From Bdellovibrionales bacterium (lineage in GTDB: Bacteria > Bdellovibrionota > Bdellovibrionia > Bdellovibrionales > UBA1609), in contig DAHVQG010000001.1 of the NCBI GenBank assembly GCA_027317865.1, forward strand, positions 32,001 through 96,000: a stretch of DNA of 64,000 nucleotides, given 5' to 3'. This document shows, in pieces, positions 3,026-42,243 of this stretch (positions are counted from its first letter, which is position 1; every line of letters begins with the position of its first letter). The notes under the pieces were generated by a model. It saw only the letters and a list, made by a program, of their open reading frames with translations, was not told the DNA's origin and made no database searches. The position numbers and the translations under genes were made by a program.

Positions 3026-3800
3026 CGCCTGAAAGACCGATCACCTGACCGCGATTGACTTGCTCGCCGACCGTCACTTTGAATTTAGATAGATGCATAT
3101 ATTCGCTATAAATTCCACCGCCATGATCAACAATAACAATGTTACCCGTGATCGGGTTGTCGCCGATATACATGACTTTACCGCTGGCGGCGACGTGAAC
3201 CGGTGTGCGCATCGGCGCGCGCAGATCGATTCCGGTATGGTAGTACGGTTTGGCGTGAGGAGGTGTGCGCGGTGAAGCGAATCTTGAAGTTACGTACATA
3301 TAGTGAAGCGGCGGGTGCCAACATTGGTGAAAATTAAACTTGCCGTTAACCGGGCTGGTGAGTCTTCTTAGCATCGCAAAGACTTCGCCGACTTGAGTTT
3401 GGCTGAAATTTTTGAGTCGATCCCATACGGCCGCAGGCAGTCGCAGCTTGATGGCTCGAGTTAAATTTATCAGAGAAACCTTAATCACTTTTTGAAAAAA
3501 TATTTCGCGTGGATAAGTAAAAAGGCCGCCGGGGGAATATTTCAATCTGCCGATAACCGTAACGGTCGGGAACGCGCCGATCCCGAGAAACGCCGTTCTG
3601 TCATTAAGCCACGAGGCGCGACGATTTGAAACCGAAAGAAACTGCCCGGCCGACTTCGCGCTTGGCCAAGTTACTTTTAAAAAATCGCCGGGTATAACTT
3701 CTGACGGTAGCTTCACAGGTGTCGCGACAAATAGATCGGCGCAAATTTGCGAAGAGGGCATCAAAACAGCAATAACGGCCACCACTACGGCGGCAATCAA
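2913..3800 (-). CDS. M23 (LytM) family metallopeptidase-like protein, exported
   Basis: HTGID (HxxxD), GNIVIVDHGGG.YSEYMHLS, GATGRVTGPNLHWE; hydrophobic N-terminus; TTG start overlaps mlaD stop. Confidence 0.85.
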   Translation of the reverse strand: MIAAVVVAVIAVLMPSSQICADLFVATPVKLPSEVIPGDFLKVTWPSAKSAGQFLSVSNRRASWLNDRTAFLGIGAFPTVTVIGRLKYSPGGLFTYPREIFFQKVIKVSLINLTRAIKLRLPAAVWDRLKNFSQTQVGEVFAMLRRLTSPVNGKFNFHQCWHPPLHYMYVTSRFASPRTPPHAKPYYHTGIDLRAPMRTPVHVAASGKVMYIGDNPITGNIVIVDHGGGIYSEYMHLSKFKVTVGEQVNRGQVIGLSGATGRVTGPNLHWELSWKGISISALRFLQVTAPTCGRG

Positions 3801-4594
3801 TGTTGGTTTTCTTCGTTTTGTCTGATTGCTGCGCGCAAGAGCGGTTTTAAAAATCGATTGCGTGGTTCATCTCCCAGTAAACTTAAAATTCGATCGTTAA
3901 TTGTCGGGTCATTTATCAGACGGCCAAGAGTTCCGTTACCGTCGTCGATCTTCTTTAAAATATTATTTAAGTGATAAAGAGACTCGCGAATATCAGGATC
4001 ATCGGCGACCTTCGAAATGTTGGCACTTGCAGTTGAAAGGTTGGAGCTTGCTTTAGAAATATGAGACACCATTGATGAAAGCCTATTGTCGGAATTGAGC
4101 GAACTCAACAACTGATTGAGTTCATGCACCGTTTCGAAAATTTTTGAAAAGTTCGGGCCCTTTCCGCTGGTCAACATGTCGAGAAAGTCACTTTCATTTA
4201 CAGATGGGATGACAGCGTCAGATGCGAGAACCGGGTCTGTGGTGGCCCCCGGCTTGATGTAAACATATTTGTCACCCAGTGCACCTTGCGTGCGAATCGA
4301 AGCCATCGACGAACTTGTAAGGTGGCGCGCCACCCGACTTAAAATTTCGACTGTTACATCCATCTTGAGATTTTTACTCAAGCGGATTTTTTTGACATTA
4401 CCGACGTTCATCCCTGAAACAGAAACAACGCTGCCAGGGGCCAGCCCTTCGGTTGACTGAAAGTAAATGTGAAACGTCGTATACGAGTGAAAGAAATCCT
4501 CGTTACCGCCGAATAAAATAATTGAGATAAGAAGTAGCGCAATGCCGATGACTGTAAATGCGCCAACTTTTATTTTTGACACCGGTTCAGTCAC
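3797..4594 (-). CDS. mlaD: MCE/MlaD family substrate-binding protein
   Basis: N-terminal TM (KVGAF), GLAPGSVVSVSGMNVGNV, IRTQGALGDKYVYIKPG, helical tail GTLGRLIND. Confidence 0.88.
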   Translation of the reverse strand: MTEPVSKIKVGAFTVIGIALLLISIILFGGNEDFFHSYTTFHIYFQSTEGLAPGSVVSVSGMNVGNVKKIRLSKNLKMDVTVEILSRVARHLTSSSMASIRTQGALGDKYVYIKPGATTDPVLASDAVIPSVNESDFLDMLTSGKGPNFSKIFETVHELNQLLSSLNSDNRLSSMVSHISKASSNLSTASANISKVADDPDIRESLYHLNNILKKIDDGNGTLGRLINDPTINDRILSLLGDEPRNRFLKPLLRAAIRQNEENQH

Positions 4595-29849: not shown

Positions 29850-32651
29850 CTAGTCGGATAGCGCCGCAACACATTTTGGACAAACGCCGGGGTAGCGCGA
29901 ATCGGCTCCGATTTCGGTACTGTAATTCCAGCAGCGTTCACACTTTTCACCTGGTGCGTGGCGCGCTTCAACAGAGAACGTTTGTTTGTCGTCGCGAATA
30001 AGTTGAACTGATGAGACGATCAAATATTCGCGTAGCCACGACTCACATTTTTTAAGTTCATCGAAGGTTCTGCCGCCTGCGCGCAAAATAACTTCAGCGT
30101 CGAGGTTTGAACCGATGACTTTATCTTGACGTAATGTCTCAAGCTTCTTTGATACGACTGCACGAATTTCGTCAAGCCGGGCGAAAAGCTCGAGAACTTC
30201 GCGATCATTCCATTCTGGTTTCGGAGTCGGAAAATCTGTCAAAAATATGCTTTCGCTTTTATTATCACCCGGCAAGAATGAATAAACTTCTTCGGTTAAA
30301 AACGATAAAATGGGGGCGAGAAGCCGCGACAAGACGCTAACCATTTCAACAAAAACAGTTTGTGAAGACCGGCGCGGGATGCCCGTCGGCTTACCCGTAT
30401 ATAGGCGATCTTTTAAAATGTCGAGATAAGTGGCGCTGAGGTCCGTCGTAAAAAATTGGTTGAGTGCATGGTAGACTTTGAAAAAATCATAGCTTTCGTA
30501 TGCGGCCGTCGCCGACGAGATGACTTGATTGAGCCGCGCCAAAGCCCATTGATCAATCGGTGGCATGTCTTTGAACGCAACGCGATCTTTTTTAGGATCA
30601 AAATCGCTCAGGTTGCCCAGCAAAAAACGCATGGTATTTCGAATTCGCCGGTATGTTTCGCTGACCCGCTTGCACATTTCGTCGGAGATCGTGACGTCTT
30701 CCCCGTAATCTTCATGGGCCACCCAAAGTCGTAAAATTTCAGCGCCGTATTTTTTAATCACTTCGGCCGGATCAACTACGTTGCCTTTGCTTTTGCTCAT
30801 TTTGTGGCCTTGCGCATCGTTGACAAATCCGTGCGTGATGAGCGCGCGAAACGGAGGATGTTCGTAAGCGGCCATTGACGAAATAAGACTCGTTTGAAAC
30901 CATCCACGATGTTGATCAGAACCTTCGAGATAAATGTCAGCAATTTCGTTATGCATGCGGGCGCGTTGAACACTGGTATGGCAACATCCCGAATCGAACC
31001 AGACATCAAGAATGTCGTCGCTTCGTTTAAACTTTGATTTTCCGCAGTTTTCGCATTTGTGACCGGCGGTGAAGGTTTCAACCGGACTATCAAAATAAGC
31101 TTCAATACCGGGCGCGGCTCCGTCTTTGCCGGGTGCTTCCATTGAGTCGGCAATTTTCTCCATAATTTCAGGTTTCATGAGCGGCGTTTCACAAGATTCA
31201 CAATAAAAAACCGGAATCGGTACACCCCAAGTGCGTTGCCTGCTTAAGCACCAATCAGGAGTATTTGCAACCATGGCTGTGAGGCGCGCTTGACCCCAAG
31301 CCGGAAAGTATTTGAGCTCATTTTCAACAACCGCGAGCGTTTTTTTGCGTAAACCAAAATTGTCATCCATTCGAATGAACCATTGGGGAGTGGCACGAAA
31401 AATCAGCGGCGTTTTCGTGCGCGGATTGTGCGGGTACGAGTGCACGATTTCTTTTTGCGCTAGGAGATGACCTGATTTTTTTAAATCTTCAACAATTTGC
31501 GCGTTGGCCGGCCAAATGCTTTGACCGGCGTATTTTGGCACGTCAGATGTAAATTTGCCGGCTGGGTCGACGGGTGAATAGACGGGTAAGTTATATTTGA
31601 GTCCCACGTGATAGTCTTCAAGACCATGGCCTGGGGCGGTGTGAACGGCTCCAGTGCCGGCATCAAGACTCACGTGATCACCCAAAATAATTAGTGAATC
31701 GCGATCAAGAAACGGATGTCGCGCATTTAAGTTCTCAAGTTCGGCGCCCTTCCAAATTGCAAGTGGTTCGCCAAGATTGAGGGCACATTCTTTAGCGATA
31801 CTATCCTTGAGTTCTGTTGCAAAAATTAGAATTTCAGAACCGGCATCGTACGCGCCGTATTCAAAATCCGCATTGAGGGCGACAGCAAAATTCGCAGGGA
31901 GGGTCCACGGGGTCGTCGTCCAGATCACGATTGACACGGGTTTTTTTGCGTTGAGCTTTCTAAGCGCCCCTTCAAGTTTAATGAAATTAAATTTCACATA
32001 AATAGAAAGACTTTTATGATCGTGATATTCCACTTCAGCTGCCGCCAAAGCGGTTTGCAAAGCCGGGCACCAATAAACCGGTTTGTTACCGCGAAAAACG
32101 ACGCCATTTTTGTAAATACGCGCGAGCACACGAATTTCATTTGCTTCGTAGGAGGGTGACATCGTGAGATAAGGATTATCCCACTTTGCAAGTACGCCGA
32201 GACGGACGAACTGTTCGCGCTGTTTATTGATCCACTTAGTTGCTTCTTCGCGGCACAAATCGCGGATTTGTTTTTTGGTTAAAGAGTTTTTTTTCTCACC
32301 CAGTTGAGATGTGACTTTGAGCTCGATCGGTAGACCGTGGCAATCCCATCCCGGAATAAATTCGGCTTTGTACCCCTGCATGTTGCGAAATTTGATGACG
32401 ATATCTTTGAGGACCTTATTCAGTGCCGTGCCGACGTGAACGTTACCATTGGCATAAGGAGGGCCATCCGGCATGACGAACGCGCGGCCGTTGGAATTCT
32501 TAGACATGATTTTTTCGTACAGCTTTGACGATCGCCATTTTTCAATAGCAATAGGCTCGGTTTGCGGCAAATTTGCCTTCATCGGAAAGGCCGTTTTCGG
32601 CAATATCACAGTATGTTTATAGCCTTCGCTTTTCTGCTCGCCCGAATTCAT
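29850..32651 (-). CDS. ileS: isoleucyl-tRNA synthetase (type 1)
   Basis: DGPPYANG, PGWDCHGLPIE, WTTTPWTLP, GTGAVHTAPGHG, EGSDQHRGWF, KMSKS, C-terminal CERC..CPKC zinc finger. Confidence 0.98.
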   Translation of the reverse strand: MNSGEQKSEGYKHTVILPKTAFPMKANLPQTEPIAIEKWRSSKLYEKIMSKNSNGRAFVMPDGPPYANGNVHVGTALNKVLKDIVIKFRNMQGYKAEFIPGWDCHGLPIELKVTSQLGEKKNSLTKKQIRDLCREEATKWINKQREQFVRLGVLAKWDNPYLTMSPSYEANEIRVLARIYKNGVVFRGNKPVYWCPALQTALAAAEVEYHDHKSLSIYVKFNFIKLEGALRKLNAKKPVSIVIWTTTPWTLPANFAVALNADFEYGAYDAGSEILIFATELKDSIAKECALNLGEPLAIWKGAELENLNARHPFLDRDSLIILGDHVSLDAGTGAVHTAPGHGLEDYHVGLKYNLPVYSPVDPAGKFTSDVPKYAGQSIWPANAQIVEDLKKSGHLLAQKEIVHSYPHNPRTKTPLIFRATPQWFIRMDDNFGLRKKTLAVVENELKYFPAWGQARLTAMVANTPDWCLSRQRTWGVPIPVFYCESCETPLMKPEIMEKIADSMEAPGKDGAAPGIEAYFDSPVETFTAGHKCENCGKSKFKRSDDILDVWFDSGCCHTSVQRARMHNEIADIYLEGSDQHRGWFQTSLISSMAAYEHPPFRALITHGFVNDAQGHKMSKSKGNVVDPAEVIKKYGAEILRLWVAHEDYGEDVTISDEMCKRVSETYRRIRNTMRFLLGNLSDFDPKKDRVAFKDMPPIDQWALARLNQVISSATAAYESYDFFKVYHALNQFFTTDLSATYLDILKDRLYTGKPTGIPRRSSQTVFVEMVSVLSRLLAPILSFLTEEVYSFLPGDNKSESIFLTDFPTPKPEWNDREVLELFARLDEIRAVVSKKLETLRQDKVIGSNLDAEVILRAGGRTFDELKKCESWLREYLIVSSVQLIRDDKQTFSVEARHAPGEKCERCWNYSTEIGADSRYPGVCPKCVAALSD

Positions 32652-33172
32652 TTTAACCTCTCGCCCATTTTTTCAATAAATTGCTGTCGCGAGTTTGTCT
32701 GCGGGAACATTTCACACACCCGTTCATAGCCGACAGCCACAAGTAAGCGCAGGGCTTCGCGTTCTGAACCTAAATTACATAGCGCTTGAACTTTGCGCAG
32801 AACCTCAATTGTACGTATGTCCAACGAATTAAAATTTTCTTGCGCGCTGCTTGGTACAAGCGGTTGTTGCAACGGCGGCGCGATGGGCATTGGTGCACGG
32901 GCCATCGGAGCTGGCGCGGTGGGGCTTTCAAATTGCTTCATCCCTTCAGCTAAGGCGCGCAGGTCTTGTTTGAATGCTTCGGAACTTGTCTCGGTCATAG
33001 TTGGCATCGTGCCACCGTTACGGCGCCTTGCTTGCAAATAGAGGGCGACAAGGCTATCTGAATTCGTCGCTAATTCGCGCACGGATTGCGGTTGCGACCG
33101 CATCCACTCGTAGGCTGCGGCGAGCATGTCGCGAGTGTATGCTTGCGGAGGGGGTAGCGGTACTGTTGCCAT
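32648..33172 (-). CDS. hypothetical protein
   Basis: 174-aa ORF, ATGA overlap with ileS, own sigma70-like promoter. Confidence 0.7.
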   Translation of the reverse strand: MATVPLPPPQAYTRDMLAAAYEWMRSQPQSVRELATNSDSLVALYLQARRRNGGTMPTMTETSSEAFKQDLRALAEGMKQFESPTAPAPMARAPMPIAPPLQQPLVPSSAQENFNSLDIRTIEVLRKVQALCNLGSEREALRLLVAVGYERVCEMFPQTNSRQQFIEKMGERLK

Positions 33173-33181
33173 TGGCGAACT

Positions 33182-33210
33182 AAGCTAGGCTCTGTACAGT
33201 AAATAGGCAA
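33182..33210 (-). promoter_or_regulatory. sigma70-like promoter for hypothetical-ileS
   Basis: Minus strand TTGCCT-N17-TAGCTT, 9 nt before ATG 33172. Confidence 0.5.
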
Positions 33211-33232
33211 GATTTTAATCGGCGCAAATAAA

Positions 33233-34720
33233 TTATTCGGCCGTTTCCGCGTAATCCTTCGCTACAATTCCATATTTTTCAATTTTTCTAAGCAGCGTTT
33301 TTTTCGGGATATTTGCGTGAAGCGCTGTCTGGTTGATGCGCCCCTTGAACATTTTCAAGGCTTTGATAATGAACTCGCGCTCAAACGCCTCCTTATGCTT
33401 GTTAAAATCTAAACTTTCACCTGAAATCGTCACAATTTCATCGCTGCGATTTTCGTTTGTTTCGTTTTCTTGCAGATCGTCCGCGTCTGGTTCGCCGGGT
33501 TCGTCAAAATTGTTGACATTCAGATTTGGCGCATTCAGCTCGACACCTGTTGCAAGCAAAAATGATTCCGGTAGCGATTGAACGGTCAAATGCGTGCCTT
33601 CTTCGAGAATAAATGCGTGTTCAATCACGTTTTCTAGCTCCCGAATGTTGCCCGGCCAGTCGTATTTTTTAAGTAGCGCCAGCGCTTCGGGGGTCGGCCC
33701 GATAATTTTTTTGCCCTGTTTTCTATTGAACTTTTGGATGAAATTTTTAACAAGCTGTTCGATGTCATCGCGCCGCTCAGAGAGTGAGGGTAAAAATATC
33801 GGCATGACATTGAGACGGTAATACAAATCTTCGCGAAACTTACCGTCTTTGTTCATCTGTTCGAGAGGCCGGTTGGTGGCGGCAATGATACGTACATTGG
33901 CTTCAATTTCGCGGTTTGACCCGACCGGGGTAAACACTTTTTCTTGAAGAACGCGCAAAAGTTTAACTTGCATCATAAGCGGCAAGTCACCAACTTCGTC
34001 TAAGAACAAAGTACCGCCTTCGGCATATTGAAATTTTCCGATTTTACGCTGATCAGCTCCCGTGAACGCGCCTTTTTCGTGGCCGAAAAGTTCTGATTCA
34101 AAAAGATTTTCTGGTATCGCCGAGCAGTTCAGTGCCACAAAGGGGCCCTCTTTCTGCGCGGAATTGACGTGAATGGCGCGGGCGACGAGTTCTTTACCGG
34201 TACCCGAAGCGCCTCGAATAAGAACGGGTGTGTCCACTTTCGAAAGCCGATGGATGACGTTAAACACTTTGCGCATTTGTGTATTGGAGCCGATGATTTT
34301 TCGGCCTTGTTCAGCCGAAAGTTGCGGCGCCGAGGCGACAACTTCTGAAACTAAATTGTACGCGGCAAGTGACTTGTTCACGAGATCGACGAGCTCTTCG
34401 CTTTTCACCGGCTTTGAAATGTAATTGTAGGCTCCTTCTTTGACTGCGCAAACCGCATCATTGATATTTGCGTACGCGGTCATGATGAGCACGATCATGG
34501 AGGGGTCAATTTCTTTAATTGCGCTAAGGGTTTTGAGGCCGTTGAGCCGCGGCATATCGACGTCTAAAATCACAAGATTATATGAGCCGGCTTTAATTTT
34601 ATCGAGAGCGTTAATGCCGTCAAACGCCTCGTCGGCGAGAAATTTACCGGTCGACTCCAACGTGTTTTTCACCGAGAGTCTTAAGCCTTGGTCGTCGTCG
34701 CAAACAAGAACTTTGATCAT
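33233..34720 (-). CDS. NtrC-family sigma54-dependent response regulator
   Basis: REC (VLVCDDD, LDVDMP, KP), [31 protein letters not shown]-terminal HTH. Confidence 0.95.
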
Positions 34721-34738
34721 GTTTCAGCTCCTTTAAAT

Positions 34739-36583
34739 TTACAAATCCATCGGGAGTTCGACGGTAAACGTCGAACCCTTCGTCGGTTCACTTTCAACCG
34801 AAATTTGACCGTGATGCAGCTGCACGAAGTAGCGCGCAAGATAAAGGCCGAGACCGTTACCTTTAATCGCGCCGTCGCGAACCGAGCGGCTGCGGTAAAA
34901 TTTCGTAAATAAATTTTCGAGTTCATCGTTGGGAATACCCATCCCCTGATCCGCCACTTGTACCATGAGACGCCCTTCGGTTTCTTCGGTTGTCACAAGT
35001 ACCGAGCTGCCTTCCGGACTGTATTTCACAGCGTTTTCAATAAGATTTGAAAACACTTGGCGCATCAAATCTTCGTCGATTTTAACGCTAAATAACGGTT
35101 CAAATTCGGTGACGATACGAATGCTTTTCTGTTTAGCGTAGTAATCCAGTTTTTGGATGGTTTCGGTGAGCAGCGCGTTTACGTCGCGGGACTTGAGCTG
35201 CAATTTAATATCCTTACTTTCGATACGGCCAAGATTGAGGATCGAGCCGACAAATTGGGTGAGCTCTTGCGACGATTCGCTAATCGTTTTTATGGCGTCT
35301 TGCTGTTGTGCGGTTAGGTGTGATGAATCGCGAAGTGCGATTTCGGTCATGCCTTGAATCCTCGCTAGAGGAGTTTTCAGGTCATGAGACATCAGTCGTA
35401 AAAAATTAGATTTGAGTTCCTCAACTTGTACAAGAAGGTTGTTGCGCTGAAAATATTCCCACGAACGGCGATTTTCGACAATCAACCGGTAAGGGATAAA
35501 AAAGTAATAACAAATAAAAACTGTAAGAAGCGGGTGTGAAACATCGATCCAAATGCCGGCGGCGGCGAACAATAACCAAGCGACAAAGAGAAACCCCGTC
35601 AAAGTAAGAACTAAAATATAAAGTCCGCGCACCGGTCGCAACGCAAGAACGATAAACACGGTGATAATGGCGATGAGGCACGTGATCATGAGATTAAGCC
35701 ATTTCGGAACTTGCACAGGAGCGTCGTTTAAAATTAGCGTATCAATCATGTTGGCTTGCAGTTCAGCTGTCGACATGGCCAGCTGATCGCGCGAATATGG
35801 GGTCATCGCGTAATCGTTTTCATTGGCCTTGTTGTCGATGCCGACGATGACAATTTTACCGCGAAATTTTTTAGGTGAAATATAACCTTGTTCGACGTCA
35901 ACAAAACTGTAATTCGGGTAGGTGCCGGTCGGTCGAAAGTTAATGTATGCTTGCTGAGTTCGTTTAAACGTGAAAACTCCACGATAATCTTTGACGCTCT
36001 TTTTGCCATTGATTTCGTCGGCAAGTTGCATCTGCGCAAGCGGCTTACCTTCGAAAGTTAAAATTACCCGCCGAGAAACGCCGTCTCGGGCAAAATTATA
36101 AACGTCAGCAGTTGTGGGGCCCGATTTGACGTCGAGATCTTGCAGCGGCGGGAGCAAACGAAATTCATCTTCGACGCCTTTGTCGGGGAGCGCGTTAGTT
36201 TTAAGAATGAGCAGATTGGCCCGTTTGGCCGCGCTCGCGAGCCTTTGAAGTTGCCCGTAAGATCCCATGATGTTGTTGAAATTATTCGTGTATAGAACGC
36301 GACGGGGCTTCGTTTGCGCAAGCCAGTTAAACAGTTTAACAAAATCATTCGCGTCGGGGAGCCGTTGCAACTCCTCTTGAGTTTTTTGATCGACGGTAAC
36401 CAACACGATGTTACCGGATGTGGCCGGGGCCGGCCGCGTTCTCACGCGCATGTCGTAAAAGAAACCTTCGAAATAGCTCAATCGAAACTGAAAAATAAGT
36501 ACGGCAAGGGCAATCGCCAGCCCGACTCTCAGGGCGGCAAATAGCCAACGCCGTTTTGATTTTTTATTTTTCTCAGTTTTCAT
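34739..36583 (-). CDS. CHASE2-domain sensor histidine kinase
   Basis: N-terminal TM, CHASE2 motifs (IVLVTVD, FRGKIVIVG, TPY, ELQANMIDTL), three TMs, H-box SHDLKTPL, NLIENAVKY, DQGMGI, GNGLGL. Confidence 0.92.
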   Translation of the reverse strand: MKTEKNKKSKRRWLFAALRVGLAIALAVLIFQFRLSYFEGFFYDMRVRTRPAPATSGNIVLVTVDQKTQEELQRLPDANDFVKLFNWLAQTKPRRVLYTNNFNNIMGSYGQLQRLASAAKRANLLILKTNALPDKGVEDEFRLLPPLQDLDVKSGPTTADVYNFARDGVSRRVILTFEGKPLAQMQLADEINGKKSVKDYRGVFTFKRTQQAYINFRPTGTYPNYSFVDVEQGYISPKKFRGKIVIVGIDNKANENDYAMTPYSRDQLAMSTAELQANMIDTLILNDAPVQVPKWLNLMITCLIAIITVFIVLALRPVRGLYILVLTLTGFLFVAWLLFAAAGIWIDVSHPLLTVFICYYFFIPYRLIVENRRSWEYFQRNNLLVQVEELKSNFLRLMSHDLKTPLARIQGMTEIALRDSSHLTAQQQDAIKTISESSQELTQFVGSILNLGRIESKDIKLQLKSRDVNALLTETIQKLDYYAKQKSIRIVTEFEPLFSVKIDEDLMRQVFSNLIENAVKYSPEGSSVLVTTEETEGRLMVQVADQGMGIPNDELENLFTKFYRSRSVRDGAIKGNGLGLYLARYFVQLHHGQISVESEPTKGSTFTVELPMDL

Positions 36584-36616
36584 GAGTCGAAATCTTTCGC
36601 GTTATTTGCAGTCGTA

Positions 36617-36736
36617 TTAAACCCAACTGCGTTCGGGGCAACCATTGGCGGCGCTTTTGCCTTCACGGGCAAGAGTCTCGCGTGTTTTATTGCCCGAAAC
36701 ATTCTTTGGTTTGCGGACTTTTTTAATGTGTTTCAT
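36617..36736 (-). CDS. 39-aa putative RiPP precursor peptide (SCIFF/CteA-like N-terminus, single Cys)
   Basis: AAGGAG RBS 6 nt before ATG 36736; overlaps the radical SAM stop; MKHIKKVRKPKNVSGNKTRETLAREGKSAANGCPERSWV. Confidence 0.75.
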   Translation of the reverse strand: MKHIKKVRKPKNVSGNKTRETLAREGKSAANGCPERSWV

Positions 36737-38057
36737 GTAAACTCCTTTTGTAGTACCAAATCGCGAGCGCCGCGATCTGGCGGGTTCGATGACAAAAATT
36801 TGGATCTTTTTCGTGACGGTTACCTGAAAATGATTTGTGTACAGCCATGCAACCCCCGCCGCATAAATGGCGTGCCCAGCAAGTTTGGCAGTGATTGAGT
36901 TCGATGAGCGTTGAGCCATAATGTTCAAGGTGCGGTTTTGACAAATCGGTGAGATGGCCGATTTTTTCGGTTTCGTCGTTCATAAACCAATTGCAAACAT
37001 AAAGGTCAGCGCGAGTATCGGATTGAATAAGCGATTTGCCCGCTCCGCAGTAATTATGCTGGCGCGTTTGACTCTCCAATCTCGTCAGCGGCCGTCTAAA
37101 CTGTTTGATTTTTACAAGCCCTGATAGCCCGTCGCGCGCGTAGAGCTTCGCGGCCGTTTTTTTCAATTCTTCAAGATAGCGGTTCGAAATTTCAAAGGCT
37201 GTTTCGGAGCGGTCGTTGTTTGAAAAGTTAAAATTATAGCGGTCAAAATCAAGATGAAGCGATTCGAGATAATCAAACGCCCGCTCGACTCGCGTATTGT
37301 GGGCGCCAAAAACGCAATTGACCGCGAGCGTACCAAGTTGATTCCGTACGGCACGTAGTTGTTCGAGTCCGCGAACGGTGAGCTCAGTTGAGCCATAACC
37401 GTTTTTTGCCTTTACCGGGCGGGTGAAGTCGTTTACTTCAGGTTCACCGTCAATGCTAACTGTGACGTGAAATCGATACCGCGCTAACATCTCCGCCGAT
37501 TCGCGTGTAATGAGGGTCCCATTGGTATTAATGGCAAAATGCAAATCAATGTCTCTTCCGCTTACCATCAATTGAGCGTAGCGGCACAGCGACTCAATGA
37601 CGTGCGGATAGAGCAGAGGTTCGCCTCCACAAAACTCAATTTCAAACGATTTGCTATCTTTGAGATTGGACAAAAAATACGAGATTTGTTGTTCGGCCTT
37701 ATGCGTGTCGATCTTTGTGATTTTAGAACCGTAAGTTCCGGCAGTTTCGTTCTTGCCATCAAAGTCGACGGCTGCGCAATAGGTACATTTTAAATTGCAT
37801 ATTTGCGCCACGTTAAGAAGCAGCGTACTTATTTCTCGCGACGAAGCGATGTCGGTTGTATCCGGAGAATTTTCTTTGTGCCACACCTCGAGTTCAGCCC
37901 TGATTTCGCTGTCTTTTTGAAGCGTGATTTCGTTTTCAAGCGCCTGCCAAACTTTTTCACTCAGTTCGGCAACTTCTAAGTTGCGCGCATGAAAACCCAA
38001 TACTTCGCCGTTTTCAGCGCGTGTTGCGAGAATGTCTTTGTAGCGGCGAAATTGCAT
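36723..38057 (-). CDS. radical SAM/SPASM peptide maturase (CteB/ranthipeptide-like)
   Basis: LNVAQICNLKCTYC (CxxxCxxC), FCGGEPLL, TNGTL, SIDG, SPASM CGAG..LYVC..CQTCWARHLCGGGC..C; GAGGG RBS before ATG 38057. Confidence 0.92.
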   Translation of the reverse strand: MQFRRYKDILATRAENGEVLGFHARNLEVAELSEKVWQALENEITLQKDSEIRAELEVWHKENSPDTTDIASSREISTLLLNVAQICNLKCTYCAAVDFDGKNETAGTYGSKITKIDTHKAEQQISYFLSNLKDSKSFEIEFCGGEPLLYPHVIESLCRYAQLMVSGRDIDLHFAINTNGTLITRESAEMLARYRFHVTVSIDGEPEVNDFTRPVKAKNGYGSTELTVRGLEQLRAVRNQLGTLAVNCVFGAHNTRVERAFDYLESLHLDFDRYNFNFSNNDRSETAFEISNRYLEELKKTAAKLYARDGLSGLVKIKQFRRPLTRLESQTRQHNYCGAGKSLIQSDTRADLYVCNWFMNDETEKIGHLTDLSKPHLEHYGSTLIELNHCQTCWARHLCGGGCMAVHKSFSGNRHEKDPNFCHRTRQIAALAIWYYKRSLHETH

Positions 38058-38125
38058 TTTCTTACCCTCTACGTGCAAAAAACAGCGTTGAAAATTCAAG
38101 GTGGTGTCAAACCCGTGTATCTAAG

Positions 38126-38141
38126 AGCAAATCACTTGCCA
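38126..38141 (-). promoter_or_regulatory. sigma54 promoter of the radical SAM-peptide-kinase-regulator unit
   Basis: Minus strand TGGCAAGTGATTTGCT vs consensus TGGCACG-N4-TTGCW (one mismatch). Confidence 0.75.
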
Positions 38142-38170
38142 GGCTTAAACCCGCAAAATAAGGGGCTTAG

Positions 38171-38205
38171 GCGACAATAAGTGTCACTTTGACACCAGAT
38201 TGTCA
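38171..38205. promoter_or_regulatory. cluster of TGTCA/TGACA inverted half-sites, candidate activator-binding site
   Basis: GCGACA-N5-TGTCA, GTGTCA-CTT-TGACAC, TGACA-N6-TGTCA overlapping, 30-65 nt upstream of the sigma54 motif. Confidence 0.45.
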
Positions 38206-38236
38206 ATCCACAGGAGTAACTGCAGAGCACAGGCCT

Positions 38237-39130
38237 TTAAAGTTTTTGATAAATGAGTACGAATTCAGATGTCGTGGTAGGAGCGTCAACCGGCACTGTT
38301 TTGATGTCAAAGGTCAACGTGTCGTTGTTGGGTTGCCGCGCAGTTAGCGTTGTATTTTCAAGTGTTGTACCGTTTAGCCAAACGAAATGGAGGTGACTGT
38401 TTTGGTTGGCCGGAGGTTTCGCAACAGGCGCAGTGGTTTGCGGCATTGGCCCCACAAAATCGGCGCTGGCGGCTGAAATTTGAGGCTGTGGTTTTTGAGC
38501 TTTCGGTTTCGACATGAGCCACGCGAGTGGGTTAAATGCCGTTGGCGTTACCGTTGAAAGATCGTACTCACCCTCAGGAGTTCGAAAATCAGACATGGGT
38601 ATAAGACGGTCGGGTTTGAGATAAAAGTTATAAACGACTTGTGCATCGGGTATGGCGGCGTTTTTAATAAATCCTTTGTTACCTTCAAACAGTCGCGGAA
38701 TAACAAGGCTTGAAGTCATGTTTTCTTCGGCAATATTGATGGGACTCGTATACTCAGTCACGACACTTTCGGGTTCACTGATTTCGGGGAGTGTATCTGT
38801 AAAGAGCACCTCAACGCTGTCGGTAATGTCTGTGACATGAGTCAAAATTTTAGTGAGCGCATATTTGCCGCTACCAAATGTTTTTTTAAAATTGAGATTT
38901 TTCCAAGCAAGCGCCGGCGAGTTGCCCGCCGCTTTTTTAATTTCGCGCTGAATGTCTTTGTGGCTCGCAAAACCACTGTTATCTACATTGCCGATGAGAG
39001 AGAGATCTTCAACATTGATATCGTCGGCTTTAGCCTTGGCGGTCAATAAAATGTTGGTTGCGCCAATAATGGCCAGCGCTGTAATAGCCGTGGCAATCAG
39101 ATTCGAATTTCGTTGTGTAAATCGCTTCAT
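38237..39130 (-). CDS. hypothetical secreted protein
   Basis: 297 aa, signal peptide ending AKA-D, Pro/Thr-rich C-terminal linker; no family recognised. Confidence 0.7.
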   Translation of the reverse strand: MKRFTQRNSNLIATAITALAIIGATNILLTAKAKADDINVEDLSLIGNVDNSGFASHKDIQREIKKAAGNSPALAWKNLNFKKTFGSGKYALTKILTHVTDITDSVEVLFTDTLPEISEPESVVTEYTSPINIAEENMTSSLVIPRLFEGNKGFIKNAAIPDAQVVYNFYLKPDRLIPMSDFRTPEGEYDLSTVTPTAFNPLAWLMSKPKAQKPQPQISAASADFVGPMPQTTAPVAKPPANQNSHLHFVWLNGTTLENTTLTARQPNNDTLTFDIKTVPVDAPTTTSEFVLIYQKL

Positions 39131-39144
39131 AACCTTTTGAAATG

Positions 39145-39162
39145 TATCAAGAGCCGTGCCAA
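39145..39162 (-). promoter_or_regulatory. probable sigma54 promoter (GA variant at -12)
   Basis: Minus strand TTGGCACGGCTCTTGATA: perfect -24 element TGGCACG, then N4-TTGA. Confidence 0.55.
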
Positions 39163-39309
39163 CTCTTGCCGCACAAGTTTTTGAAAATCCAACAAGGTTC
39201 GAATAGTTAGAACAGTGTCGCGGGCTAAAATGATGAAAGTTGAACAGGGTTTTGAAATCACTTCAGAGCCAAAAAACGACGCCGTTGCGCCGCATTTCAG
39301 CGCTATTGG

Positions 39310-41667
39310 CTACTTTATCCGAATAAGTGTTGTGTTTTGGGCGGTTTCAAACGGGTAAGCGGTCGGAACTTGTTTTCTAAGTTGCGCAGCCGTGTAAGTG
39401 AACTTTTCGACTCCTTTGGGCCACGCAAAATCGTCTTTCGGAAAGCGCTTGCAGTAGTCGCGCATGAAACTGAGCCACAATGGCAAGGCTCCGCTTGCTC
39501 CGGTAAGCATTGAAGGAGTGTTATCGTCGTAGCCTGTCCACGTAACAGTGAGCACGTGTGGAGTAAACCCAACGAACCACGCGTCGCGCGTGTCGCTTGT
39601 TGTTCCGGTTTTACCGGCCGCTGGCCAATCGAAACCTTCGAGGGTCGCGCGCCTGGCCGTTCCGGTCAACAAAGTTTGTTTCATCATGCCGATTAAAACA
39701 GCCACTGTTTGCGGCGAAAACGCACGCACGTCTTTGGGGTGAGCCACATAAATTTCTTGCCCGTCCGGGTCCGTCACGCGCAGGACATACTGCAGCGGCC
39801 GCATGAGTCCGAAGCGGGCAACGGTAAGCGCGCCAGTTGCGACTTCCCACGGGTAAAGCTCAAATGCTCCAAGAGTGAGAGACGGTAGGGGTTCTATATT
39901 TGACTGCGTAATGCCGGCGCGACGGGCGACGTCGACAATGTTGGTTAACCCAACCTGTATGCCCATCCTTGCCGTTGCATCGTTGAGGGAATCTTTGAGC
40001 GCATAAAAAAGCGGCACCTCGCCATGATAAGTTCGCGTATAGTCGCGTGGCGACCACTCTTGACCTTGATAATGGTAAACAAACGGTTCGTCTTTTATAA
40101 GTGAAGTTGCTGTATAAGGTTTGCCGTTGGGTTGATTGCCTTCGAGCGCGGCTAAATAGTCAAATATCTTCATGACGGAGCCGACTTGCCTATGGGCATC
40201 GAGCACGCGGTTATATTGCGTATTTTCAAAATGGCGGCCACCGACCAGCGCTAAAACATCGCCGGTGTCGACATCGACTGAAATTAACGAAGCTTCTAAT
40301 TTTTCGCCTTTGGCCTTGAGTTTTGTAATGTACGGGTCATCCTGCTCAAGTTTGCGCACGTGCTCGAGCACCTTTTTTTCGGCGCTTTCTTGGGCGCCCA
40401 CGTCGAGTGAAGTGTAAACGTTAAGTCCGTTTTCAGTGCTGATATTCAGTCGTTTTAGCTCGCGAAAAATCGCCTGCGTATAGTAGGGTGCCGGGTCATG
40501 AAGCGATTCTTCGGACTGCGTTGGGAGCGGGGTCGAGTTCGCCCAATCCGCATCTTGCTGCGAAATCATTTTGTCAGATACCATAGCCTTGAGAACAAGC
40601 GACCGCCGCTCGCGCGCATGATTAGGGTGCGTGAACGGATCAAAGTAACCTGGGTTATTAATGATTGCCGCAAGCAGGGCACATTTTGGCAAATCGATCG
40701 AGTTCAATTTTTCGTTGAAATAGTGGCGGCTGGCCGCGCCGAATCCGATCACTTGAAACGGTCCGCTTTGGCCCATGTAAATGACGTTGAGATAATTTTC
40801 GAGGATTTGATCTTTGCGTAAACTCGCGTCGAGTAGCATCGCCATAACGACTTCAGTGATTTTACGGCGCAGGGTTTTTTGCGGAGTTAAAAAATAATTT
40901 TTCACAAGTTGTTGGGTAATGGTGCTGCCGCCTTCCGCATAGCGACCTTTTAAAACGTCGTTTACCAATGCACGAAGAATGCCCTTAAAGCTGATCCCCG
41001 GGTTTTCAAGAAAAGTACGGTCTTCTATCGCTGTGACGGCCTCCGAGCAATCGAGCGGGACATCGCCCATATCTATGATTTGCCGCAAAATAGGTTTGCC
41101 GTTGTAGAACTGCGCAAAAAGTTCCGGTTCCAGTTGAACCGATTTGACTTCCGTAAATGGTTCACCGCCGAAAATGTGTGAGATTGTCCAACTCCCGTCG
41201 CCTTGCTGGCCCTGAATCGGCGCAGACGGCGCTTCTCCGTGAGAAAACGCAATCAAAACGGGCGTGCCGGCTTCTGACGGTTTAATTGTGTCGTCGCCTT
41301 CGCGAAATTCCACGCATGCATCCAGACCGCTCATAAAATCGTCGTTTAAAATTTTGGCGCATTGATCGTGGTTGAGCATGATGAAATCTTTCGGGTAAAG
41401 CGACTCCGAACCAAACCGTTCACGGTAGTGCCGTTGCAGAAGGGATTTTCGAACCGTGCTTGCTGAAATGATTTCGTGAGTAAATAAAACTTCGCCGCGC
41501 GCGTAGAGGTTGACCGGCGGGCGAAACCAACCGTGGGCGATTCGTTTTTTCATTTCGATGTCGAGGCGCCACGCCCAAATCGCGACGGCAACAGCGCCAA
41601 GAAAAGTAAAAACAAATATTCGGCCGAGCCACTTTCGCCATTTATGCGACTTCATCTTGCTTGACAT
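39310..41667 (-). CDS. mrcB: bifunctional class A penicillin-binding protein (PBP1B-like)
   Basis: TM anchor, UB2H-like region, AIEDRTF, GGSTITQQLVKN, RKITE, YLNVIYMG; SVMK (SxxK), SLN, KTGT. Confidence 0.88.
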   Translation of the reverse strand: MSSKMKSHKWRKWLGRIFVFTFLGAVAVAIWAWRLDIEMKKRIAHGWFRPPVNLYARGEVLFTHEIISASTVRKSLLQRHYRERFGSESLYPKDFIMLNHDQCAKILNDDFMSGLDACVEFREGDDTIKPSEAGTPVLIAFSHGEAPSAPIQGQQGDGSWTISHIFGGEPFTEVKSVQLEPELFAQFYNGKPILRQIIDMGDVPLDCSEAVTAIEDRTFLENPGISFKGILRALVNDVLKGRYAEGGSTITQQLVKNYFLTPQKTLRRKITEVVMAMLLDASLRKDQILENYLNVIYMGQSGPFQVIGFGAASRHYFNEKLNSIDLPKCALLAAIINNPGYFDPFTHPNHARERRSLVLKAMVSDKMISQQDADWANSTPLPTQSEESLHDPAPYYTQAIFRELKRLNISTENGLNVYTSLDVGAQESAEKKVLEHVRKLEQDDPYITKLKAKGEKLEASLISVDVDTGDVLALVGGRHFENTQYNRVLDAHRQVGSVMKIFDYLAALEGNQPNGKPYTATSLIKDEPFVYHYQGQEWSPRDYTRTYHGEVPLFYALKDSLNDATARMGIQVGLTNIVDVARRAGITQSNIEPLPSLTLGAFELYPWEVATGALTVARFGLMRPLQYVLRVTDPDGQEIYVAHPKDVRAFSPQTVAVLIGMMKQTLLTGTARRATLEGFDWPAAGKTGTTSDTRDAWFVGFTPHVLTVTWTGYDDNTPSMLTGASGALPLWLSFMRDYCKRFPKDDFAWPKGVEKFTYTAAQLRKQVPTAYPFETAQNTTLIRIK

Positions 41668-41695
41668 TATGGGGCATCGGGAATTTAGTCAAAGA

Positions 41696-41974
41696 ATGAA
41701 GGTCAGCGAAAAATTCATCGAGCGCCTCGTACATCAAGTGTTTAAAGACCTTAAAGCGCAGGACATTATTACGTTTAAAGATAAGGAAGACCGCGTGTTT
41801 CGTCGCGCGTGCGACATTCTTGTTCAAGAGTATCAACGCGAATCCGATCTTGACCATGAGGTCAACCGCATGATGGATGATCTCGAACGTCAAAACCCGG
41901 GCCAATTTCAACGCTACAAAATGTTCCCGCTCCTGAAGAAAAAGTTAGCTAAAGAAAAGGGAATTGTTCTGTGA
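41696..41974 (+). CDS. DUF507-like small protein
   Basis: MKVSEKFIERLVHQVFKDL..ESDLDHEV..MFPLLKKKLAKEKGIVL; ATG 41696 avoids overlap with mrcB. Confidence 0.75.
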   Translation: MKVSEKFIERLVHQVFKDLKAQDIITFKDKEDRVFRRACDILVQEYQRESDLDHEVNRMMDDLERQNPGQFQRYKMFPLLKKKLAKEKGIVL

Positions 41975-42243
41975 CTTTGTCCGAAGAACGGCAAACTCAT
42001 TTTGCACACCTCATCATCGACGGCATCTGGAATGACGATTTAGTTGATTACAGCGATGATGATGTGGCAATTAAAGTGGCCAAGCGCGCGATCGCAAAAT
42101 TTGTCGCTGAAATGGAAGAAATTGACAAAAAAGCGAAAGCCATGGTGGCCTCACTTAAGCGTGGAGTTCCCGAGGGTTCACCGGAATGGGACGTTCTCTA
42201 CGCAAAATATTTAGAGGAAGAACTTCGCCGTCGCGGCAACTAA
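41971..42243 (+). CDS. DUF507-like small protein (second copy)
   Basis: LSEERQTHFAHLI..IDKKAK..SLKRGVPEGSPEWDVLYAKYLEEELRRRG; GTGA overlap. Confidence 0.8.
   Translation: MTLSEERQTHFAHLIIDGIWNDDLVDYSDDDVAIKVAKRAIAKFVAEMEEIDKKAKAMVASLKRGVPEGSPEWDVLYAKYLEEELRRRGN

Follow-up and report, generated by a model that had tools for sequence, protein, structure and literature searches.

A conserved single-cysteine peptide paired with a CteB-like radical SAM/SPASM enzyme in Bdellovibrionales: a candidate ranthipeptide-like family

The peptide gene and its neighbouring enzyme

A 64,000-nucleotide (nt) stretch of the genome of a Bdellovibrionales bacterium (GenBank assembly GCA_027317865.1, contig DAHVQG010000001.1, positions 32,001 to 96,000; ‘the window', to whose numbering positions refer unless another locus is named) harbours on its reverse strand a small gene for a putative precursor peptide of 39 amino acids (aa), which is placed directly after a gene for a radical S-adenosylmethionine (rSAM) enzyme with a SPASM domain and directly before the genes of a sensor histidine kinase and a sigma-54-dependent response regulator (Table 1). 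Translation of the small open reading frame (ORF) on the (−) strand gave MKHIKKVRKPKNVSGNKTRETLAREGKSAANGCPERSWV, followed by TAA. The peptide is composed of the leader MKHIKKVRKP, a variable basic linker and a core that ends in NGCPERSWV and holds the sole cysteine (Cys33), six residues from the C-terminal end; it is strongly basic (11 of its 39 residues are Lys or Arg) and carries no signal sequence.

The signals around this ORF were largely as described in an earlier, sequence-only reading of the same DNA. The ribosome-binding site (RBS) AAGGAG that it had claimed was found in place (Table 1), and the ATG, which it had reported to overlap the maturase stop, lies 11 nt 5′ of the rSAM stop codon (36725-36723), with an ORF overlap of 14 nt in a junction that is not of the ATGA type. 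The gene had also been described as hidden within a longer frame, and the ORF list indeed gives only a 103-aa ORF with a TTG start (36617-36928) in the same frame. The statement that the peptide is unannotated stands as far as a name is concerned, as it has none, but not as regards the record, since the exact peptide sequence is already held as a called protein. An exact-sequence look-up of ten family peptides returned no protein record for three of them; gene callers thus miss the ORF in some genomes.

The mechanically delimited rSAM ORF spans 36723-38099 (−), that is, 458 aa from a TTG at 38099. The real start is probably the ATG at 38057 (Met15), because the called form of the protein (P0068) has 444 aa, GAGGG precedes this ATG and the alignments of homologues begin there. 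Cysteines are numbered here by the 458-aa form.

Among the NCBIfam models, the five best scores of the enzyme were those of PapB (NF047865; 176.3 bits against a cut-off of 340), a nif11-type peptide maturase (170 bits), QhpD (144 bits against 453), the SCIFF maturase (TIGR03974; 128.7 bits against 425) and CcpM (116 bits), and sulfatase_rSAM (TIGR03942; cut-off 349) gave 98.1 bits. The SCIFF maturase model was matched by 15 of 15 orthologues, likewise below its cut-off (best E of 3e-42), and the public names of the enzyme proteins are generic. Among structures in the Protein Data Bank (PDB), CteB, the SCIFF thioether synthase, was the best match by sequence (E of 2.8e-25 with the single protein and 7e-48 with a profile) and also by fold (TM 0.74/0.77 over 454 columns, N-terminal domain included; AlphaFold2 (AF2) model with a pLDDT of 87). 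The anSME enzymes formed the second group of PDB matches, aligning over ~390 columns without the N-terminal domain. The pairing of the peptide with a maturase of the SCIFF/ranthipeptide type, as the sequence-only reading had it, is borne out by these matches, with CteB leading in the PDB and PapB, nif11-type, QhpD and SCIFF models leading in NCBIfam, all of them below cut-off.

Invariant residues of the enzyme include the CX3CX2C motif (C101/C105/C108) and exactly seven SPASM cysteines (C351, C369, C404, C407, C413, C417 and C436). These seven align one-to-one with the CteB ligands in the list given in the available part of PMC10177961, three at auxiliary cluster 1 (AC1) and four at auxiliary cluster 2 (AC2), and by this alignment the enzyme has the 3+4 cysteine pattern of CteB with its open AC1 site. 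In the AF2 model, residues 13-75 form β-strands and then three helices, which is the layout expected of a RiPP recognition element (RRE; RiPP, a peptide that is made by ribosomes and then modified post-translationally); no PqqD/RRE domain was called in the Pfam scan of the enzyme.

What these features do in characterized relatives has been described, as far as the available parts of the three papers cited here extend. The substrate Cys or selenocysteine binds an iron of AC1 in PapB and Tte1186 (PMC10177961), and the N-terminal RRE of CteB binds the leader of its peptide CteA as a β-strand (PMC8326336). A SCIFF peptide has six Cys, yet its maturase makes a single thioether in it (PMC8326336; PMC8172795), and in the CteB crystal it is a non-substrate Cys of CteA that is found on AC1 (PMC8326336).

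Conservation of the pair and of the single cysteine

A small ORF on the same strand was found after the orthologous rSAM gene in all 36 loci in which the 3′ end of the rSAM gene is complete, and also in L047. Relative to where the rSAM stop codon ends, its start in these 36 loci varies from 25 nt before to 68 nt after. The encoded peptides, of 30-50 residues, share one layout: a basic leader of the HIKK(V/I)KP type, one Cys near the C-terminus and a Pro at +1 or +2 of it. When 29 non-redundant peptides were aligned, the Cys was the sole invariant column, the I-K-K of the leader was at least 90% conserved and each of the 29 members had exactly one Cys, which makes the single Cys seen by the sequence-only reading a property of the family.

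From 80 further Bdellovibrionales loci, every stop-to-stop segment (14,630 in total) was then scored with a profile made from these 29 peptides. At E<0.01 there were 60 matches, rising to 70 at E<1, each of them on the rSAM strand and directly after the rSAM gene; the best match at any other position had an E of 2.3. Of the 75 peptides located, 12 were identical to training sequences, and 48 of the remaining 63 were found at E<0.01. Five loci gave no profile match: three (L117, L138 and L150) hold divergent copies recognized by eye, in one (L105) the contig stops within the copy, and L154, whose contig ends 49 nt after the rSAM gene, was not assessable. By profile and by-eye inspection together, the peptide follows the rSAM gene in 79 of the 79 assessable loci. 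The check proposed with the sequence-only reading, namely whether a conserved ORF exists at homologous loci, is thereby answered in the affirmative in both sets of loci (36 of 36 and 79 of 79 assessable).

Further evidence for a translated gene comes from substitution patterns and start signals. The ratio of non-synonymous to synonymous changes (pN/pS) was 0.15-0.65 in eight of the eight evaluable pairs (closer pairs, with small counts), and 28 of 29 orthologous peptide ORFs have a Shine-Dalgarno-like motif before them. When 5.8 billion proteins were searched with a profile, 61 peptides were returned at E≤10, those with a name being all ‘hypothetical protein' of Bdellovibrionales; 22 of the 61 were read, and all 22 belong to the same family. 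By these comparisons, the small gene can be taken as confirmed, that is, as real, conserved and under selection.

The peptide is present in the cultured strains Bdellovibrio bacteriovorus HD100, 109J and Tiberius and in P. exovorus JSS. In RNA libraries, contigs from four of four runs (four studies) join the peptide ORF to the rSAM gene, in a cultured relative that is ~92% identical to locus L032, and one contig covers the rSAM gene and the peptide alone. Contig ends at about 2767-2812 of L032 were considered as transcript ends and rejected, as the strain diverges from L032 there.

Orthologues of the rSAM enzyme (39-67% identity) were found in 10 of 40 other relatives, or 11 of 41 genomes when G000 is counted. 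In a sample of 401 genomes across the phylum, 61 carry the enzyme, all of them in the window's own order, and it was found in none of the families searched outside that order. Within the order, the Bdellovibrio family has it in 52 of the 53 genomes sampled, and the window's own family in 5 of 26. At 17 kinase loci that lack the rSAM gene, no peptide-like ORF was found, and the kinase directly follows PBP1b or the gene for a 297-aa protein. The rSAM enzyme and the peptide, which are present or absent together, form a unit. In a quick tree of the kinase sensor domain (without the fragmented kinase of genome G001, L080 and L081), at least five changes are required to explain where the pair is present; supported branches force two of these, one of the two being a same-genus sister pair.

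The core around the Cys was compared in 111 distinct sequences, which fall into four types: (i) C-x-P (89 cores); (ii) C-P-E (12); (iii) C-P-P (9); and (iv) C-P-V (1). A Pro is thus found at +1 or +2 of the Cys in all 111. The residue at −1 is Gly in 50 and Ala in 19 of the cores, and the tail after the Cys is 3-13 residues long. The window's peptide belongs to the C-P-E minority clade, in which alone Glu35 is conserved (12 of 111). Trp is found only in the window's peptide (Trp38), Asn31 and Ser37 are not conserved, and no aromatic residue is conserved in the core, either in the alignment of 29 or among the 111 cores.

These patterns bear on the acceptors that had been proposed from the window's peptide alone. 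A GCxxxxW motif with a linkage to Trp38 does not survive the comparison, its Trp being unique to this one peptide; nor do Asn31 and Ser37, which are not conserved, and Glu35 can be upheld only within the 12 cores of the C-P-E clade. Thus, of the two elements whose conservation was to be checked, MKHIK and GCxxxxW, the leader was kept in its HIKK-type form, but the motif was not. The proposed likeness of the leader to the MKHIK-type leader of SCIFF precursors could not be confirmed; the leader of the family reads HIKK(V/I)KP, and the SCIFF precursor model TIGR03973 (six_Cys_in_45; cut-off 50 bits) had no match in the window's genome at E≤10 and none among the 29 family peptides at E≤1.

A second core Cys was seen only in L088 (about 3717-3851; …GCIGKNHCPEID) and in protein P0060 (…GCKPVNCIPSN). 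By sequence, these two-Cys cores look like natural duplications of the Cys-x-Pro unit, and such members could reveal whether the enzyme acts more than once.

Operon context and regulation

The sequence-only reading had dealt with the peptide and its maturase and had left out the rest of the operon, namely the sigma-54-type promoter, the CHASE2 kinase and the NtrC-type activator (Table 1). In 36 of 36 loci, and likewise in 13 of 13 wider contexts, the next gene after the peptide is the kinase gene, and in all of these 13 the kinase is followed by an NtrC-type regulator. The 174-aa protein encoded further downstream has a homologue in all 13 wider contexts, which come from across the order, and by gene order it may be part of the same operon.

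Table 1. Features of the peptide locus, listed in the direction of transcription (window positions)
Feature	Position	Strand	Description	Basis
Palindrome TGTCA-CTT-TGACA	38182..38194	.	~40 nt 5′ of the −24 element; sole copy in the 64-kb window	
Sigma-54-type −24/−12 element TGGCAA-N5-TTGCT	38126..38141	−	Intergenic, 5′ of the rSAM gene, ~70 nt before Met15	
Radical SAM/SPASM peptide maturase (putative)	36723..38057	−	444 aa from Met15	Pfam Radical_SAM, Fer4_12
Shine-Dalgarno AAGGAG	36742..36747	−	5 nt 5′ of the peptide ATG (36736-36734)	Read directly
Precursor peptide gene (putative)	36617..36736	−	39 aa plus TAA stop at 36617-36619	Translation
CHASE2-domain sensor histidine kinase	34739..36583	−	614 aa, starts 33 nt after the peptide stop	Pfam CHASE2, HisKA, HATPase_c
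NtrC-type sigma-54-dependent response regulator	33233..34720	−	Receiver, AAA+, HTH_8	Pfam, NCBIfam
Conserved 174-aa protein	32648..33172	−	No Pfam family; stop overlaps the ileS start, same gene string	

Sites of the sigma-54 type were accepted if GG and GC were kept, with at most two mismatches, within 300 nt 5′ of the rSAM gene. By this criterion, a site was found in 76 of 97 non-redundant loci, compared with 0.020 per 300 nt elsewhere in the same loci. Across the whole window, matches of this type were not above chance (43 found against 34.7 expected). The window's genome has rpoN, as a partial gene at a contig end. In a scan of 32500-39400 for terminators and promoters, counts were not above those in shuffled sequences, which leaves the scan uninformative by itself; no terminator-like site was found in it between the peptide and the kinase.

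The kinase is more widely distributed than the pair: 29 of 41 relatives have an orthologue of its sensor half, whereas the rSAM enzyme is present in 11 of 41, and in 18 of 41 the kinase occurs without the pair. A sigma-54-like site is located directly 5′ of the kinase in 8 of 17 rSAM-less loci. As these loci keep the site before the kinase, the promoter is assigned to the kinase-regulator operon, of which the pair forms the first two genes where it is present.

In the strict form TGTCA-N3-TGACA, the palindrome was found at 6 of 97 rSAM loci and, among 17 rSAM-less loci, 5′ of the kinase in 4; in the relaxed form TGTC-N5-GACA, it was found 5′ of the rSAM gene in 13 of 97 loci, mostly near relatives of the window, compared with a background of 0.003 per 300 nt. 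With so few loci, the strict palindrome was rejected as a general activator site. The copy in the window is, by its sequence and position, a candidate binding site of the NtrC-type activator in the window's clade only.

Three side observations were made at or near this operon. In genome G001, from the same genus (contig C36, loci L080/L081; 93% complete, with no rSAM gene found), the kinase matches come in three pieces, and there are masked runs of N in the locus, as a broken gene or a poor assembly would give. A 297-aa protein encoded between PBP1b and the rSAM gene in the window (38237-39130 (−)) carries a hydrophobic segment at its N-terminus and matches no family of Pfam or NCBIfam; the only homologues seen are from the same genus (L002-L004, L050, L051 and L057). 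Elsewhere in the window, two overlapping ORFs (41510-41974 (+) and 41971-42243 (+)) match positions 1-93 and 95-181 of the DUF507 profile, respectively; relatives such as L043 and L048 also have the two-ORF form, which therefore resembles a natural split more than a frameshift.

Interpretation and likeness to known systems

The explanation that we favour, and hold to be probable, is that the peptides form a new single-Cys, ranthipeptide-like RiPP family of Bdellovibrionales that is modified by the upstream rSAM/SPASM enzyme, most likely with one thioether, by analogy with CteB and its kin. Ranthipeptides (radical non-α thioether peptides) are defined by a bond that an rSAM enzyme makes from a Cys sulfur to the β- or γ-carbon of another residue. 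A one-crosslink product, possibly of a new ranthipeptide subclass, was already suggested by the sequence-only reading, and this remains the best reading now that the single Cys is seen to be a rule of the family and to be paired with a CteB-like maturase. Its basis, as read from the sequence and from comparison, is a selected small ORF with its own RBS, a strict pairing of this ORF with the CteB-like enzyme, the cluster cysteines of that enzyme and the sigma-54-type element before the operon.

The following course of events is proposed. Transcription would start from the sigma-54-type promoter before the rSAM gene, probably through the CHASE2 kinase and the NtrC-type activator, which would make the operon likely to be self-activating. 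The peptide would be translated from its own strong RBS, coupled to the end of the rSAM gene. If the enzyme behaves as its homologues CteB, Tte1186 and PapB do, the N-terminal RRE-type domain would hold the HIKK(V/I)KP leader, the lone Cys would bind the free iron of AC1, and the 5′-deoxyadenosyl radical would take a hydrogen from a neighbouring residue, giving one C-S thioether, a small C-terminal ring and a mass shift of −2 Da. The conserved neighbours of the Cys that such a reaction might involve are only the Pro at +1/+2 and the small residue at −1, with C-P-E in the window's clade.

Several points weigh against this explanation. It is homology alone that suggests the thioether; no acceptor residue is conserved apart from Pro, and to our knowledge no thioether to Pro is known. 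The core C-x-P-x-R of the genus Bdellovibrio is the formylglycine motif of sulfatases. The enzyme, like its 15 orthologues, scores below every curated NCBIfam cut-off, which leaves room for a different chemistry. The genes between PBP1b and the rSAM gene differ in the 11 diverse contexts read, with no recurring protease or exporter, and a secreted product is not indicated. Translation of the ORF is read from sequence signals; the RNA-library contigs support transcription weakly, as DNA carry-over is possible and transcript ends are not shown by contigs. Finally, the loci counted above come from related genomes and are not independent of each other, and some genomes occur in both sets, so that the counts of 36 and 79 loci indicate conservation and not independent replication.

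One alternative extends the favoured explanation rather than excluding it: the modified peptide would be exported and sensed by the CHASE2 kinase, which would act through the NtrC-type activator on the sigma-54 promoter in a self-amplifying, quorum-type circuit. The arrangement resembles peptide-pheromone operons, with rSAM gene, peptide and kinase in the same order in 36 of 36 loci, the regulator next in 13 of 13 wider contexts, a sigma-54 element conserved 5′ of an operon within which a sigma-54 activator is encoded, and no terminator-like site between peptide and kinase. However, co-transcription fits the peptide as an output of the system equally well as an input, the peptide is strongly basic and without a signal sequence, and no exporter or leader protease is conserved nearby. 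Moreover, the kinase orthologues in 18 of 41 relatives lack both the enzyme and the peptide, and 8 of 17 such loci keep the sigma-54-like site; as kinase and site occur in rSAM-less loci, the sensor circuit works without the peptide. Such a loop is considered unlikely, if worth keeping in view. More doubtful is its full form, in which the one-ring peptide would be a self-made signal of predatory Bdellovibrionales that is exported, sensed by the CHASE2 kinase and amplified via the NtrC-type activator on its own sigma-54 promoter. If true, a natural ligand of a CHASE2 sensor domain would be known for the first time, bacterial predators would have their first peptide signal between cells, and relatives with only the kinase and the regulator would be either listeners or sensors of a different cue.

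The other alternatives replace the thioether or the peptide itself. The single Cys could be oxidized to Cα-formylglycine by an anSME-like enzyme within C-x-P(-x-R). The sulfatase signature is C-x-P-x-R, and many cores of the genus Bdellovibrio read C-I-P-V-R, C-L-P-I-R or C-V-P-V-R; anSME is also the second PDB match group after CteB, and the sulfatase_rSAM model does match. This score is nevertheless far under its cut-off and below those of four thioether-type models, and the anSME alignment leaves out the N-terminal domain that the 454 columns of CteB include. In anSME, the auxiliary clusters are fully ligated, and the alignment places further Cys in its AC1 region, whereas the family has, like CteB with its open AC1, seven invariant SPASM cysteines. 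The Arg at +4 is not conserved outside one genus, the window's core being C-P-E-R, and the three PF00884 proteins of the genome resemble LtaS/YejM types with no convincing signature seen (two are without a motif match, and the third has only Ser-x-Ala-x-Arg matches). Formylglycine formation is, on balance, improbable. We also give slender credence to some other radical chemistry, such as epimerization, a C-C or C-O cross-link or a modification of Pro, in which the Cys would serve only as an anchor to AC1. It would accord with an enzyme below every curated cut-off that is also matched by the DynA, YhhB, XyeB and DarW SPASM maturase models, with a Pro as conserved as the Cys, and with the non-substrate Cys of CteA on AC1 in the CteB crystal (PMC8326336, available part). 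Yet the five best NCBIfam models are those of Cys-peptide maturases or thioether formers, with cyclophane and ether formers lower, and the core has no conserved aromatic residue. As for the small ORF being untranslated, with the conserved stretch between the rSAM and kinase genes acting instead as an element of RNA or DNA, the ORF is short, callers miss it in some genomes (three of ten sequences without a protein record) and its translation is deduced from sequence signals. Such an element would hardly account for conservation at the protein level (HIKK leader, Cys and Pro) while the DNA diverges to 64-85% identity, for a pN/pS below 1 together with a Shine-Dalgarno motif 5′ of 28 of 29 ORFs, or for a frame, a start and a single Cys that are kept in 111 distinct cores despite varying length and linker, and this alternative is scarcely credible. 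The single-thioether RiPP thus remains the explanation that we prefer.

No curated family covers either the peptide or the enzyme. Searches of Pfam and NCBIfam with the peptides gave no family, the two matches obtained (E of 0.017 and 0.073, each to one of 29 members) being taken as chance; the peptide and its profile had no match among PDB chains at E≤10 and no usable match in the ESM Atlas. No paper describing a Bdellovibrionales rSAM-peptide system was found in the literature, the supplements of RiPP surveys, which possibly list the cluster, lying outside this search. Thioether peptides made by rSAM/SPASM enzymes are known, and the role of SCIFF, their most widespread form, is still unknown. 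With one Cys and a tail of 3-13 residues, the peptide would be a very simple substrate for asking what rSAM/SPASM enzymes do and which carbon is attacked; the hosts are tractable, as the peptide is present in cultured, genetically tractable Bdellovibrio-type strains; and the sigma-54/two-component operon offers a regulatory handle not available for SCIFF, together with a candidate link to the predator life cycle.

Compared with known systems, the enzyme shares the SPASM fold with anSME, and in most family members the Cys-x-Pro core is similar to the motif of sulfatases. Unlike the window's enzyme, with its putative N-terminal leader-binding domain, anSME has no such domain, and it has eight cluster cysteines rather than seven; the sulfatase model scores 98.1 bits here against the 349 required, the substrate here is a dedicated peptide of 30-50 aa, and the genome has no evident formylglycine-type sulfatase. 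QhpD, the third-best NCBIfam model, makes Cys-Glu and Cys-Asp thioethers in the small subunit of quinohemoprotein amine dehydrogenase (PMC8326336, available part), and its Cys-Glu linkage is, by analogy, relevant to the window's C-P-E core. However, the enzyme scores under the QhpD cut-off, QhpD acts on an enzyme subunit that holds several Cys, qhp genes are absent here, and Glu is conserved in only 12 of 111 cores. A closer likeness in score is to PapB, the top NCBIfam model, which acts on the freyrasin precursor PapA: as described in the accessible parts of two papers, the chemistry of these ranthipeptides is Cys-dependent with the substrate Cys on AC1 (PMC10177961), and PapB requires C-x3-D motifs, of which there are six per peptide (PMC8172795; PMC10177961). 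Here, the score is under the cut-off of 340, and no acidic residue is conserved at +4 of the Cys.

With SCIFF/thermocellin (CteA/CteB; Tte1186a/Tte1186), the window's system has in common a short precursor beside an rSAM/SPASM maturase with no protease or exporter in the cluster, and a maturase that has CteB as its best PDB match, the 3+4 auxiliary-cluster cysteines and, in the model, a putative N-terminal domain of RRE type. Both are also near-universal in one lineage, the rSAM gene here being present in 52 of the 53 sampled genomes of one family. The differences are that SCIFF peptides have six Cys, compared with one here; that the Thr acceptor of CteA has no counterpart in the C-x-P/C-P-E core; that the 128.7 bits against the SCIFF maturase model compare with a cut-off of 425; and that SCIFF belongs to Clostridia, whereas the present pair is found in Bdellovibrionales, within a sigma-54 operon that holds a CHASE2 kinase and an NtrC-type activator. 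While its peptide and its maturase both fall outside the models by which SCIFF is recognized, the system would, from its sequences, seem to work most like SCIFF/CteB.

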